A stretch of 64,000 nucleotides of DNA from Escherichia coli O157:H7 (GTDB taxonomy: Bacteria > Pseudomonadota > Gammaproteobacteria > Enterobacterales > Enterobacteriaceae). Each line of letters begins with the position of its first letter. The stretch's first letter is position 1. The notes beneath the pieces are model-generated. The model saw only the letters and a program-made list of their open reading frames with translations, ran no database searches and was not told the DNA's origin. The stretch is taken from the NCBI RefSeq assembly GCF_013167455.1, contig NZ_CP038328.1. One strand, written 5' to 3'. This document shows positions 1,006-52,017 of this stretch, in pieces. Position numbers and translations under genes: made by a program.

Positions 1006-2618
<1,613 letters not shown>

Positions 2619-4481: not shown

Positions 4482-4504
4482 AAATAATACCGTTCTCTTT
4501 ATAA

Positions 4505-4580
4505 AGTAAAACCCCCGAACTGGTAAGGAACGGGGGTTTTACTTTTTAACTTTAATTTTGTGCAGCACACGATTCCAACG
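4505..4580 (-). ncRNA. ohsC: Candidate OhsC antitoxin sRNA, divergent from shoB
   Basis: Minus-strand CATAAT -10 element at 4587-4592; the transcript would contain the 19-nt element at 4560-4578 and end at the 4508-4547 terminator; known shoB/ohsC layout. Confidence 0.45.
4508..4547. terminator. Bidirectional rho-independent terminator (AAAACCCCCG / CGGGGGTTTT with T-runs on both sides)
   Basis: Perfect 10-bp stem read in the sequence; serves acpS on + and the candidate ohsC transcript on -. Confidence 0.7.
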
Positions 4581-13776: not shown

Positions 13777-13960
13777 AGTGGCTCATTCACCGACTTATGT
13801 CAGCCCCTTCGGGACGTGCTACATAAAATTCGAATGACGCACAACAAGGTGCCTGCCGTCCAACTTCTGATATCAGCGTAGCTATATCAACCATCGGGCG
13901 AAACGTCGAGTTAGGCACCGCCTTATTCCATAACAAAGCCGGGTAATTCCCGGCTTTGTT
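13777..13960 (+). ncRNA. glmY: GlmY small RNA
   Basis: Sequence AGTGGCTCATTCACCGACTTATGTCAGCCCCTTCGGGACG... recognised as GlmY; ends in the hairpin AAAGCCGGG/CCCGGCTTT plus U-tract; about 184 nt. Confidence 0.85.
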
Positions 13961-43185: not shown

Positions 43186-43296
43186 TAAAAAGTATTCAGA
43201 ATCAGGCCGGGGCGTATCGCGCTCCGTAAACACGGTCGTACATCCAGCCGGTAGCCTGGTTCCTTGCATTGAGTGATGTACGGAGTTTATAGAGCA

Positions 43297-48469: not shown

Positions 48470-49753
48470 ATGACAGAAGCGATGAAGATTACCCTCTCTA
48501 CCCAACCTGCCGACGCGCGCTGGGGAGAAAAAGCAACTTACAGCATTAATAATGACGGCATTACCCTGCATTTGAACGGGGCAGACGATCTGGGGCTGAT
48601 CCAGCGTGCGGCGCGCAAGATTGACGGTCTGGGCATCAAGCATGTTCAGTTAAGCGGTGAAGGCTGGGATGCGGATCGATGCTGGGCATTCTGGCAAGGT
48701 TACAAAGCCCCGAAAGGCACGCGTAAAGTGGAGTGGCCGGATCTGGACGATGCCCAGCGCCAGGAACTGGATAACCGCCTGATGATCATCGACTGGGTGC
48801 GTGACACCATCAACGCACCGGCAGAAGAATTGGGACCATCGCAACTGGCACAGCGTGCTGTTGATCTGATCAGCAACGTCGCGAGCGATCGTGTGACTTA
48901 TCGGATCACCAAAGGCGAAGATCTGCGTGAGCAAGGTTATATGGGGCTGCACACCGTCGGACGCGGTTCAGAACGTTCTCCGGTATTGCTGGCGCTGGAT
49001 TACAACCCAACTGGCGATAAAGAAGCGCCAGTGTACGCGTGCCTGGTAGGTAAAGGTATCACTTTTGACTCCGGCGGCTACAGCATCAAACAGACTGCGT
49101 TTATGGACTCGATGAAGTCGGACATGGGCGGCGCGGCAACGGTTACCGGGGCGCTGGCATTTGCCATTACGCGCGGACTGAACAAGCGCGTGAAGCTGTT
49201 CCTCTGCTGTGCGGATAACCTGATTAGCGGCAATGCGTTCAAGCTGGGCGATATCATCACTTATCGCAACGGTAAAAAAGTTGAAGTGATGAACACTGAT
49301 GCCGAAGGGCGCCTGGTGCTTGCCGATGGTCTGATTGATGCCAGTGCGCAGAAACCGGAAATGATCATTGATGCGGCGACCCTCACCGGGGCGGCGAAAA
49401 CTGCGCTGGGTAATGATTATCACGCGCTGTTCAGTTTTGACGATGCGCTTGCCGGTCGTTTGCTGGCGAGTGCCTCACAAGAGAACGAACCATTCTGGCG
49501 TCTGCCGCTGGCGGAATTCCACCGCAGCCAGCTGCCGTCTAACTTTGCCGAACTGAACAATACCGGAAGCGCGGCGTATCCGGCAGGCGCGAGCACGGCA
49601 GCGGGCTTCCTGTCGCACTTTGTTGAGAACTATCAGCAAGGCTGGCTGCATATCGACTGCTCGGCGACTTACCGTAAAGCGCCGGTTGAACAGTGGTCTG
49701 CGGGTGCTACGGGACTTGGTGTGCGCACGATTGCTAATCTGTTAACGGCGTAA
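48470..49753 (+). CDS. pepB: Peptidase B (M17 aminopeptidase)
   Basis: 427-aa product from the internal ATG ([11 protein letters not shown]) with an AAGGA Shine-Dalgarno; NTDAEGRL motif. Confidence 0.9.
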
Positions 49754-49761
49754 ACTAATAT

Positions 49762-49860
<99 letters not shown>

Positions 49861-49895: not shown

Positions 49896-50672
49896 ATGTC
49901 CGAAACAAAAAATGAACTTGAAGACCTGCTGGAAAAAGCAGCAACCGAACCGGCGCACCGCCCGGCCTTTTTCCGTACTCTACTGGAATCCACCGTCTGG
50001 GTGCCTGGTACGGCGGCGCAGGGCGAGGCTGTGGTTGAAGATAGCGCGCTTGATTTACAGCACTGGGAAAAAGAAGACGGCACCAGCGTCATTCCTTTTT
50101 TTACCTCGTTAGAAGCACTTCAACAGGCGGTTGAAGACGAACAGGCATTTGTCGTAATGCCCGTTCGCACATTGTTTGAGATGACCCTTGGCGAAACGCT
50201 CTTCCTTAATGCCAAACTGCCGACCGGTAAAGAATTTATGCCGCGTGAAATCAGTTTGTTGATTGGTGAAGAGGGAAATCCGCTGAGCAGCCAGGAAATC
50301 CTGGAAGGCGGTGAATCGCTGATATTATCGGAAGTCGCAGAGCCGCCAGCACAAATGATTGATTCACTCACCACCTTATTTAAAACCATTAAGCCTGTGA
50401 AGCGTGCTTTTATTTGTTCAATTAAAGAGAACGAAGAGGCACAGCCTAATTTACTTATTGGCATTGAAGCCGATGGTGATATCGAAGAAATTATTCAGGT
50501 GGCGGGAAGTGTAGCGACCGATACATTACCTGGCGATGAACCAATCGATATTTGTCAGGTGAAAAAAGGGGAAAAAGGAATTAGCCACTTTATTACCGAA
50601 CATATTGCGCCATTCTATGAACGTCGCTGGGGTGGTTTTTTGCGTGACTTTAAACAGAATCGGATAATCTAA
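49896..50672 (+). CDS. sseB: SseB family protein
   Basis: 258-aa product from the internal ATG (MSETKNELEDLLEKA). Confidence 0.88.
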   Translation: MSETKNELEDLLEKAATEPAHRPAFFRTLLESTVWVPGTAAQGEAVVEDSALDLQHWEKEDGTSVIPFFTSLEALQQAVEDEQAFVVMPVRTLFEMTLGETLFLNAKLPTGKEFMPREISLLIGEEGNPLSSQEILEGGESLILSEVAEPPAQMIDSLTTLFKTIKPVKRAFICSIKENEEAQPNLLIGIEADGDIEEIIQVAGSVATDTLPGDEPIDICQVKKGEKGISHFITEHIAPFYERRWGGFLRDFKQNRII

Positions 50673-50675
50673 AAT

Positions 50676-50990
50676 ATGCCGCCCCAAAGGGCGGCATTCG
50701 GGCTTACCTGCTGCTCTGAAGGTTGTTAATCACCAGTAAATTGTCGCCGGAGAGACTCCGGTTATTATTTACCTCGGTTAACAGCGCACCAGAAACAATA
50801 AGTACGATACAGAAGCACCGTATCTTCATTGTGCGGTCCATGCGAAGACCGCATCACGACAGCACCACTGGCGATATTGCCGCGATAGCAAGCACTGTGG
50901 GGTGCCTGTATTTACGGTCATGGAACATTCTTTCCTAAAGCCAGCGCCCGTTTGCGAGACGGCGAAAAGGGCCATTAAGAATAATACTCT
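50676..50990 (-). ncRNA. ryfA: ryfA-like transcript (a short mRNA annotated as an sRNA); 5' end uncertain
   Basis: Minus-strand rho-independent terminator at 50676-50697 (ATGCCGCCC/GGGCGGCAT then a U-rich tail); position between sseB and sseA matches ryfA. Confidence 0.45.
50704..50829 (-). CDS. Candidate small hydrophobic protein inside the ryfA transcript (41 aa, MKIRCFCIVLIVSGALLTEVNNNRSLSGDNLLVINNLQSSR; TimP-like toxin candidate)
   Basis: ORF below the track cutoff, read by hand on the minus strand; stop lies 7 nt before the terminator hairpin; alternative in-frame start at 50841; no strong Shine-Dalgarno. Confidence 0.3.
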   Translation of the reverse strand: MKIRCFCIVLIVSGALLTEVNNNRSLSGDNLLVINNLQSSR

Positions 50991-51049
50991 CATGTTTGAA
51001 TAATTACTCTGTTTATTATCTTGGCACAGCCAGGCATAAAAGAGAGTAT

Positions 51050-51155
51050 TTCAACACTGTGGGGTGCCTGCGTTGCTCCGGCAACACAAGTCAACCTGCT
51101 GGAAAGGCCGCGAACCAGACCAGCAATAAAAAACCGCCAAATTCGGCGGTTTTTT
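51050..51155 (+). ncRNA. Candidate divergent antisense sRNA (TimR-like)
   Basis: Contains CACTGTGGGGTGCCTG (51056-51071), the same 16-mer found at 50894-50909; ends at the plus-strand terminator 51127-51155; weak TTGGCA-N17-GAGTAT promoter at 51021-51049. Confidence 0.25.
51127..51155. terminator. Bidirectional rho-independent terminator (AAAAACCGCC / GGCGGTTTTT)
   Basis: Hairpin flanked by A/T runs on both sides, directly 3' of sseA. Confidence 0.65.
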
Positions 51156-51171
51156 ATTGCCTGTAAAAAGC

Positions 51172-52017
51172 TTATTTCAATGGCTCAACCGGTAAATCTG
51201 CCCGCGCGCCCCATTCACTCCATGCGCCGTCGTACAGTTTCACGTTTGGCACATCCAGCGTCGCGAGTGCCAACAAAACCACGGCTGCTGTTACACCAGA
51301 GCCGCAGCTGACGATAATTGGTTTGTCATAGCTGACGCCGCGACCAAAAAATATCGCATCCAGTTCATCGGTCGTTTTTAGTTCGCCTTCGCGCACCAGT
51401 TCCGTCCACGGAACGTTCAATGCACCGGGAATATGTCCGCGACGTAAACCTGGGCGAGGTTCATCAACTTCTGCGTTAAAACGTGCAGCCGGGCGGGCAT
51501 CAATAATTTGCGCCGTATTTTCATGGCTTGCCAATAACACATCGGTTACTTTCACCACTGCTTCAGGATTAAACGCGGCGTTAAACTCTCCTTCCGGCAG
51601 CTCTACTGCACCTTCTTCTAACAACAGATCATCGCGCTGCCAGCCTGCAAGTCCACCCCCCAGAATCGACACTTTCTCTACACCAAAGGTGCGCAGCATC
51701 CACCATGCTCGTGGGGCTGAGAAAAGATTACCTTCGTCATAGACAATCAGGTGCTTATCCTGGTTAACGCCTAATTCACGCATCGCCACGGCGAACGTTT
51801 CCGGGCGCGGCAGCATGTGCGGAAGCGGGGAAGTGTGATCAGAAAGCGCTTCGATATCAAAAAACACTGCGCCGGGAATATGTCCATTCAGATACTCCTG
51901 AGCAACGTTACGATCTTCCTGTCCAGGCGACGCCATGCGGGCATCGATAATCTGAATTTCCGGGTCATCAATATGTTCGGCGAGCCAGTCGGCTCCTACA
52001 AACCATGTCGTGGACAT
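51172..52017 (-). CDS. sseA: 3-mercaptopyruvate sulfurtransferase
   Basis: 281-aa product from the internal ATG (MSTTWFVGADW); tandem rhodanese domains with the CGSGVTA active-site loop. Confidence 0.9.
   Translation of the reverse strand: MSTTWFVGADWLAEHIDDPEIQIIDARMASPGQEDRNVAQEYLNGHIPGAVFFDIEALSDHTSPLPHMLPRPETFAVAMRELGVNQDKHLIVYDEGNLFSAPRAWWMLRTFGVEKVSILGGGLAGWQRDDLLLEEGAVELPEGEFNAAFNPEAVVKVTDVLLASHENTAQIIDARPAARFNAEVDEPRPGLRRGHIPGALNVPWTELVREGELKTTDELDAIFFGRGVSYDKPIIVSCGSGVTAAVVLLALATLDVPNVKLYDGAWSEWGARADLPVEPLK

Follow-up and report, generated by a model that had tools for sequence, protein, structure and literature searches.

A very probable timP–timR type I toxin-antitoxin locus in Escherichia coli O157:H7 and the covariation of its antitoxin pairing site

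Introduction

TimP of Salmonella is an inner-membrane peptide of 38 amino acids (aa) whose overproduction results in leaky, dying cells (Andresen 2020, PMC7667032). Its mRNA is abundant and scarcely translated unless timR is deleted; the small RNA (sRNA) TimR pairs with the leader and blocks translation, as established by compensatory mutants and in vitro translation (PMC7667032). The Salmonella timP gene also kills E. coli hosts (PMC13000454). A complementary, terminator-ended divergent sRNA was reported upstream of timP in every enterobacterium analyzed, and the E. coli K-12 gene ryfA was listed as "timP (formerly ryfA)" (PMC7667032). Here we analyzed the corresponding locus, ryfA, in a stretch of 64,000 nucleotides (nt) of E. 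coli O157:H7 (contig NZ_CP038328.1), referred to as the window; all positions are those of the window.

In Shigella dysenteriae, RNA-seq detected divergent transcripts of about 100 nt upstream of each ryfA gene (PMC5333039), and RyfB1 lowered RyfA1 and not RyfA2 (Fris 2017, PMC5333039). The same study distinguished four versions of a 5-nt "variable region" in ryfA of Escherichia and Shigella (TGTTT, CGCGT, CCCCC and CACCC), and the G+C-rich "ryfA1-like" versions, including CACCC, were linked to enteropathogens.

Positions 50671-51160 of the window are very probably the known timP-timR type I toxin-antitoxin locus in its O157:H7 "ryfA1-like" CACCC allele. By sequence comparison, the locus comprises a predicted timP mRNA of about 305 nt for a 41-aa TimP and a divergent predicted timR gene of about 100 nt, with perfect complementarity over 16 nt. 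The initial annotation of this DNA, made from the letters and a list of open reading frames (ORFs), had proposed that ryfA is a second type I module resembling Salmonella TimP/TimR, with the divergent-antisense signature of shoB/ohsC. Rfam, NCBIfam, the timP annotation in RefSeq, covariation and the literature all agree with the first proposal, and a divergent, non-overlapping sRNA with a short complementary stretch agrees with the second. Since ohsC, the antitoxin of shoB, was found by Rfam in the same window (4503-4579, minus strand), "second" is fair wording.

The locus, peptide, antitoxin RNA, pairing site and variable region have all been published (Andresen 2020, PMC7667032; Eleftheraki 2024, PMC11228461; Eleftheraki 2026, PMC13000454; Fris 2017, PMC5333039) and RefSeq already contains the gene; what was found is therefore timPR, correctly rediscovered, and not a novel system. 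A genuine type I toxin-antitoxin module and its correct relatives were recognized by a reader who had only the sequence, which is a useful check on such a scan and carries little weight as a discovery.

The timP mRNA and the TimP peptide

The timP transcript and its product were placed on the minus strand as follows.

50671-50975, minus strand: timP mRNA (ryfA RNA), about 305 nt, matching Rfam RF00126 with 323.2 bits (gathering score 80) over model positions 1-296 of 296.
50704-50829, minus strand: TimP coding sequence, 41 aa plus stop, 126 nt, MKIRCFCIVLIVSGALLTEVNNNRSLSGDNLLVINNLQSSR; stop codon at 50704-50706.
50704-50841, minus strand: 45-aa form of the TimP ORF, from an upstream in-frame ATG at 50841.
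50676-50697, minus strand: intrinsic terminator of timP found by the terminator scan (9 pairs, 7 of them G-C, T-rich tail), the terminal hairpin of the Rfam model.

The RF00126 match is likewise present in O157:H7 and K-12-type records. Position +1 of timP was set at 50975, the first position of the Rfam model, as the presumed start. The 41-aa translation is identical to RefSeq WP_001356414.1, "small toxic inner membrane protein TimP", and matches NCBIfam NF040796 (toxic_TimP; cut-off 45) with 88.6 bits along profile positions 1-40 of 40. A protein search with the peptide returned dozens of Escherichia/Shigella clusters named TimP. The peptide consists of a basic N-terminus (MKIR), a hydrophobic core CFCIVLIVSGALL (residues 5-17, mean Kyte-Doolittle hydropathy 2.86) and a polar tail. 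The terminator hairpin starts 6-7 nt past the stop codon and adjoins the convergent sseB stop. A terminator-delimited minus-strand transcript with a hydrophobic ORF of 41 aa (or 45 aa) ending 7 nt before the terminator, as read in the initial annotation, is thus recovered by the ORF, Rfam and terminator scans alike.

Homologous loci were collected by scanning a one-genome-per-species collection with the pattern GCGGTCNNNGCANNGACCGCAC, taken from stem-loop 4 (SL4) of the leader, and were kept if nhmmer matched ryfA. Other pattern matches were mostly chance hits in G+C-rich genomes, and the pattern itself fixes SL4 and part of an ATG at +135 as invariant. At least 15 loci were kept: three from Escherichia, two from Citrobacter, one from Superficieibacter, three from Rahnella, one from Erwinia and five from Yersinia.

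An ATG at +147 opening an ORF of 38-42 aa occurred in all 17 homologous loci compared, which represent six genera, while the C-terminal half of the peptide diverged freely. The ATG at +135, which would start the 45-aa form, was present in 12 of the 17 and absent in Rahnella, Erwinia and Y. similis. A 45-aa ORF has been described in uropathogenic E. coli (UPEC) CFT073 (Bessaiah 2021). As the main start it was rejected: NF040796 matches only from residue 5 of this form, its ATG is not universal and RefSeq uses the 41-aa form.

The 16-nt pairing site and its covariation

The site through which TimR is predicted to act lies in the 5' untranslated region of timP.

50893-50908, minus strand: predicted TimR-binding site, +68 to +83, formed by the 5' arm and loop of stem-loop 2 (SL2) and containing the CACCC "variable region".

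The exact 16-mer CACTGTGGGGTGCCTG occurs at 50893-50908 and at 51055-51070. The initial annotation had noted this repeat, which is indeed exact; both copies lie one base further left than the 50894-50909 and 51056-51071 given there. As both copies of the 16-mer run in the same direction on the plus strand, transcription rightward from about 51055 would yield an RNA exactly complementary to timP +68 to +83, and the TimR seed forms 16 of 16 Watson-Crick pairs with the timP site. The cognate seed duplex was calculated at -36.7 kcal/mol, compared with -9.2 kcal/mol for SL2 alone. The full-length timP-TimR duplex (-71.5 kcal/mol; shuffles -65.9 ± 4.8) was uninformative, because the calculation ignores intramolecular structure, and the analyses of exact runs and covariation were used instead.

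A complementary run of 16-21 bp was found in 11 of 16 other loci (Escherichia, Citrobacter, Superficieibacter, Rahnella, Erwinia and Yersinia) at matching positions, namely timP +64 to +87 and 64-99 nt upstream of timP. Two more Escherichia loci have the run broken by mismatches. The seed sequence varies between species and both copies change together (13 other loci, five genera). In the intermolecular helix of 14 loci, 96.1% of alignment cells were paired against 28-46% when the partner was slid by 1-3 columns, the former share being somewhat inflated since each locus was given the register with the best complementarity; the chosen register was the same relative to the conserved flanks in all loci. 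Ten of the 20 pairs, and 46 cells, were changed on both sides, and none of 500 shuffles reached the covariation score. The initial annotation had made its reading depend on conservation of the 16-mer pair in related genomes, and across these 14 loci the pairing is kept with covariation.

The repeat could also be read as chance, or as the remnant of a duplication without any pairing function. Local duplication and symmetry in the region between the two copies, as well as the two timR copies held by K-12-type loci, would fit a remnant. Against this, none of 100 shuffles gave three matches at up to two mismatches (0.05 expected), so that the observed count was never reached, and outside the pairing stretch the two copies are no longer identical. 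They change jointly across species and across E. coli alleles, and compensatory mutagenesis proved the pairing in Salmonella (PMC7667032). This reading was rejected on the intermolecular covariation in the 14 loci, and we regard its probability as negligible.

Leader elements and the predicted translational switch

In Salmonella, a pseudoknot between stem-loops 1 and 3 (SL1 and SL3) is needed for timP translation and is disrupted by TimR binding to SL2 (PMC11228461), and long-range pairing between site 2 and the 5' arm of SL4 frees the Shine-Dalgarno sequence (SD) (PMC13000454). Every feature of this published switch that can be recognized at the sequence level is present, as predicted elements, in the O157:H7 allele.

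50940-50946, minus strand: pseudoknot site 1, CGCUGGC, +30 to +36, in SL1; pairs with site 3.
50866-50872, minus strand: pseudoknot site 3, GCCAGUG, +104 to +110, at the top of SL3; pairs with site 1.
50914-50919, minus strand: site 2, GACCGU, +57 to +62, read from the sequence; can pair with the SL4 5' arm GCGGUC, +124 to +129.
50833-50852, minus strand: SL4, GCGGUCUUCGCAUGGACCGC, +124 to +143, a helix of the Rfam consensus that sequesters the SD.

The SL1-SL3 pseudoknot of seven pairs was 100% paired in the 14 sequences of the alignment, and three of its pairs showed compensatory changes. The SL2 helix (CAGGCAC/GUGCUUG), whose 5' arm and loop form the TimR site, was 96.9% paired in the 14 sequences. 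The pairing of site 2 with the SL4 5' arm consists of five Watson-Crick pairs and one G-U pair; C59, C60, G61 and T62 were invariant in the alignment, so that this pairing of sites 2 and 4 shows conservation only, without covariation. The SL4 stem (GCGGUCU/GGACCGC, seven pairs) holds the SD GGA at 50837-50839, 7 nt before the AUG at 50827-50829. SL4 was 100% paired in the set with zero covariation information, its invariance following from the use of the SL4 sequence as the search pattern.

From the experiments on the Salmonella orthologue, we infer the steps from SD locking to membrane leakage. The timP SD would be locked in SL4, and translation would require both the 7-bp SL1-SL3 pseudoknot and pairing of site 2 (+57 to +62) with the SL4 5' arm, by which the SD would be freed. 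Binding of TimR would open SL2 and destabilize the pseudoknot, and initiation would be blocked; TimP would be synthesized only when TimR is low. The peptide would enter the inner membrane via its uncleaved signal-like N-terminus and, when abundant, may render the membrane leaky. Retention with covariation of elements that sequester and release an SD is sensible only if translation matters.

Upstream open reading frames in the leader

The leader contains an upstream ORF (uORF), which the initial annotation had put forward as a competitor of the TimP ORF.

50854-50928, minus strand: 24-codon uORF, +48 to +122, in the same frame as TimP (start +48 vs +147), spanning the 16-mer; judged non-functional.

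The existence of this ORF, its frame and its inclusion of the repeat are as described there, while its role as a product is not supported, given an unconserved ATG, the lack of a family and the position of its SD-like run within SL1. Translation of the 24-aa uORF, either as a real product or as a mok-like leader whose TimR-blocked translation drives that of timP, is in our opinion very improbable. The run AGGAAAGA 4 nt before its ATG, the frame shared with TimP and the overlap with the TimR site would favor such a role, as would retention of the 24-codon frame to a common UGA in most homologues. However, the ATG (+48) is replaced by TCG, AAT or AGT in five of 14 intact homologues (Citrobacter sp., Erwinia and three Yersinia). 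An in-frame TAG leaves five codons of the ORF in E. whittamii, and the same TAG occurs in L127 and L128, two E. coli alleles of type C. Where the uORF crosses the TimR site, its residues differ radically between loci (YRHPTV, CRCFTA, RRHVSV, RRRNPV), a pattern that follows the pairing instead of a peptide. The lower stem of SL1 has the SD-like GGAAAG as its 3' arm, and the product had no NCBIfam match. Even in homologues that lack a start, the frame runs on to the common UGA, which is most simply attributed to structural constraint on SL3 and SL4; the shared stop itself is located in structurally constrained sequence. A conserved uORF required for toxin translation, which characterizes leader coupling of the hok/mok type, was not found in the 24-aa ORF. 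Counts of variable columns by codon position (15/14/18 for TimP vs 16/16/13 for the uORF) are saturated at this divergence.

A second uORF in another frame was observed at 50826-50921 on the minus strand (31 codons from an AUG at +55, position 50921). Its UGA and the timP start share bases (AUGA), as is classic for coupled frames. The ATG at +55 is retained only in some Escherichia, Citrobacter, Superficieibacter and R. bonaserana loci; elsewhere the start is GTG (K-12 type), GCG (E. whittamii) or ACG (Yersinia, Erwinia and two of three Rahnella). In Salmonella, mutation of a uORF with its AUG at +53 to +55 left timP translation unaffected, so that translation there is independent of the uORF (PMC11228461). 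By position this AUG corresponds to the +55 AUG of the 31-codon uORF and not to the +48 AUG of the 24-codon one.

The divergent RNA TimR

The partner of the pairing site is predicted to be transcribed from the plus strand.

51055-51155, plus strand: timR (RyfB1/STnc2070 homologue), predicted antitoxin sRNA of about 100 nt, based on the repeat, the fold and conservation.
51021-51049, plus strand: predicted sigma-70 promoter of timR, with -35 TTGGCA at 51021-51026, a 17-nt spacer and -10 GAGTAT at 51044-51049.

The timR gene starts about 80 nt upstream of the timP start on the opposite strand and consists of the 5' seed (51055-51070), two internal stem-loops and an intrinsic terminator. Its fold was calculated at -40 kcal/mol (z = -3.84). 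The terminator hairpin has its arms at 51123-51141 and 51142-51160, with a T run at 51150-51155, and stands back-to-back with sseA; the plus-strand terminator that the initial annotation placed at 51127-51155 corresponds to this hairpin. The simple terminator scan did not report this hairpin, probably since its T run had been taken up by an A/U extension of the stem.

In the alignment of 13 homologues, a variable 5' end was followed by a conserved body and terminator, and five pairs showed compensatory changes. In every intact locus the upstream seed copy is followed by the conserved body GCGUURC ... GCUGGAAAGGCCGC ... CCAGC and then by the terminator. The promoter boxes are conserved in position in 13 loci, in the order CTTGAC(A), about 17-18 nt, a -10-like hexamer (mostly NANTAT), 6-7 nt and the seed. 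They would put the transcription start at about 51055-51057, and thus the seed at the extreme 5' end of TimR. The simple promoter scan flagged neither the timR nor the timP promoter, in the case of timR because only three of six positions of the -10 box match. TimR has been detected on Northern blots in UPEC CFT073 and in avian pathogenic E. coli (APEC) CH138 (PMC13188913).

No Rfam family covers TimR. Near 51055-51160 (plus strand) and 51119-51197 (minus strand) only sub-threshold matches were found, to AgrB, the rimP leader, RNAI and the 3' part of IS128, the last of which falls on the terminator shared by TimR and sseA. An RNA family for TimR could be built from the homologue alignment.

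The 79-nt spacer between the two predicted transcription starts (50976-51054) contains an inverted repeat (50983-50998/51035-51050) with a GAGTAT box on each strand, and a tandem duplication of GAATAAT(A/T)ACTCT. Spacers were 78-80 nt long in Escherichia vs 63-71 nt in Rahnella, Yersinia and Erwinia; in the shorter ones the CTTGACA box reads TTGTCA on the other strand, and the two -35 boxes may overlap.

Peptide or RNA function in E. coli

Several points weigh against a functional toxin-antitoxin module in O157:H7. The function of this allele is read from sequence and homology, and its transcript ends and both promoters are predictions. The share of paired cells in the intermolecular helix is somewhat inflated by the choice of register, and SL4 contributes no covariation. 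The literature consulted on E. coli alleles reports neither production nor toxicity of E. coli TimP. Shigella ryfA1 gave no detectable protein (Fris 2017, PMC5333039), and the phenotypes of a UPEC ryfA deletion were all restored by three ORF-disrupted alleles (Bessaiah 2021). According to a 2026 paper on APEC, whether a toxic peptide is encoded by E. coli ryfA "remains to be determined", and loss of timR had minimal effect.

On these grounds RyfA of E. coli might be a non-coding regulatory RNA only, with the TimP ORF a silent relic and TimR (RyfB) a control of an sRNA instead of an antitoxin. The full complementation by ORF-disrupted alleles in UPEC and the minimal effect of timR loss in APEC support this, as does the finding that overproduction of RyfA1 in Shigella removed ompC mRNA even though no protein was detected (PMC5333039). 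We nevertheless consider it improbable. The TimP ORF starts at +147 and spans 38-42 aa in all 17 loci and passes the curated protein model, and the elements of the leader that sequester and release the SD are kept, with covariation. In Salmonella the orthologue is translated and toxic, and it kills E. coli hosts. Native TimP is undetectable in wild-type Salmonella unless timR is deleted (PMC7667032), so that negative blots in E. coli and Shigella are to be expected while timR is present.

The negative results in E. coli and Shigella are also compatible with a dual-function RNA. Since overproduction of RyfA1 lowers ompC mRNA in Shigella, O157-type RyfA could be such an RNA, in which the CACCC loop of SL2 also serves as a seed for other mRNAs, TimR acts both as antitoxin and as sponge, and the three seed types represent regulatory "addresses" and not just neutral drift. 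This proposal is speculative and we regard it as rather unlikely. The identification of the locus as timP-timR remains our preferred reading.

Allele types and rearrangements

At least three seed types were distinguished in E. coli (loci L001, L002 and L124-L129): type A (CACCC, the window), type B (TGTTT, K-12 type) and type C (CGCGT). Each E. coli timP has a cognate TimR with 16-20 bp of complementarity, while non-cognate combinations reach at most 8-12 Watson-Crick pairs and their duplexes are 10-23 kcal/mol weaker. The timP of the window gave -15.1 kcal/mol with type B TimR and -13.5 kcal/mol with type C, vs -36.7 kcal/mol with its own.

The K-12-type locus L002 carries additional elements in its spacer (positions of L002).

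1860-2340: K-12-type locus L002, with a proximal non-cognate type C timR at about 1913-2014, IS128 RNA at 1967-2175 (minus strand) and the cognate type B timR at 2234-2339.

The order in L002 is type C timR, IS128, another copy of the ~20 nt that open timP, and type B timR, and similar arrangements were observed in L003, L128 and L129. The long K-12-type spacer resembles what would be left of a locus that had two modules. In L124 both an A and a B module are complete, with an sseB fragment between them.

In Citrobacter amalonaticus (L080), Yersinia aleksiciae (L116) and Y. similis (L071), TimR body and terminator, in reverse complement, take the place of roughly the first 65 nt of timP; the junction in C. 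amalonaticus, traced by hand, falls at the seed. Judged from its sequence, such a rearranged 5' end is the expected product of a putative deletion between the two direct seed copies, which would remove both promoters and SL1 and leave the TimP ORF intact. The antitoxin's complementarity may render the module prone to self-deletion.

Genomic setting of the locus

The ryfA/timP-timR locus is situated between the sseB stop (50672) and the sseA stop (51172), and the flanking genes are pepB, sseB, sseA and yfhM. The 561-nt stretch 50640-51200 shares 99.8% identity with O157:H7 chromosomes. Among the matches listed (5425 E. coli genomes matched), timP is annotated at the same position in RefSeq records of O157:H7, K-12-type and other E. 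coli. The CACCC allele is a minority: a spacer at least 99% identical occurs in about 310 of 5425 complete E. coli genomes, and identities of 80-90% were found in 4819.

Further Rfam matches above threshold in the window were rncO (876-1090), GlmY (13777-13924) and the iscRS stability element (43186-43295). A partial naRNA4 match resembling a repetitive extragenic palindrome was located at 49748-49792, between pepB and sseB.

Comparison with known systems

The system of Salmonella Typhimurium was compared from published descriptions, with Citrobacter DNA as the nearest proxy, and a word-indexed protein search with the 41-aa peptide returned almost only Escherichia/Shigella TimP clusters and reached no Salmonella. 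The two systems have the RNA family RF00126 and the protein family NF040796 in common. The timP ORF starts at +145 in Salmonella vs +147 here, and TimR is divergent in both and pairs through its 5' end with SL2, over 18 nt there and 16 nt here. The SD in SL4, the SL1-SL3 pseudoknot, the pairing of site 2 with site 4 and sseB's position on the terminator side are also shared. In contrast, Salmonella TimP has 38 aa instead of 41, its C-terminal half and the seed sequence differ, and in the window no STM2534-like gene separates timR from sseA. The 38-aa Citrobacter TimP of our set (...LHA|D...) fits the Salmonella description, while E. coli TimP reads ...LLTEVNNN....

RyfA1/RyfB1 of Shigella dysenteriae shares the "ryfA1-like" CACCC variable region and a divergent transcript of about 100 nt that pairs over it. 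It differs in having two tandem modules (ryfA1/ryfB1 and ryfA2/ryfB2) where the window has one, and Fris (2017) interpreted the RNAs as riboregulators and detected no peptide.

The ryfA gene of E. coli K-12 likewise lies between sseB and sseA and encodes a 41-aa TimP with two residues different, although the DNA is only about 86% identical. Its seed is type B, TGTTT (timP GCAGGTGTTTCACAGCG, TimR GCTGTGAAGCACCTGC), and its spacer is 318 nt longer, with the IS128 RNA and an additional, non-cognate timR copy of type C inside it.

The shoB/ohsC, tisB/istR-1 and zorO/orzO systems resemble timPR in having a small hydrophobic toxin ORF, a long structured leader and a divergent, nearby, non-overlapping sRNA with 16-20 nt of complementarity. 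They have no sequence or family relationship to timPR. Moreover, these three systems need nuclease processing or a standby site, whereas timP reportedly switches by structure alone.

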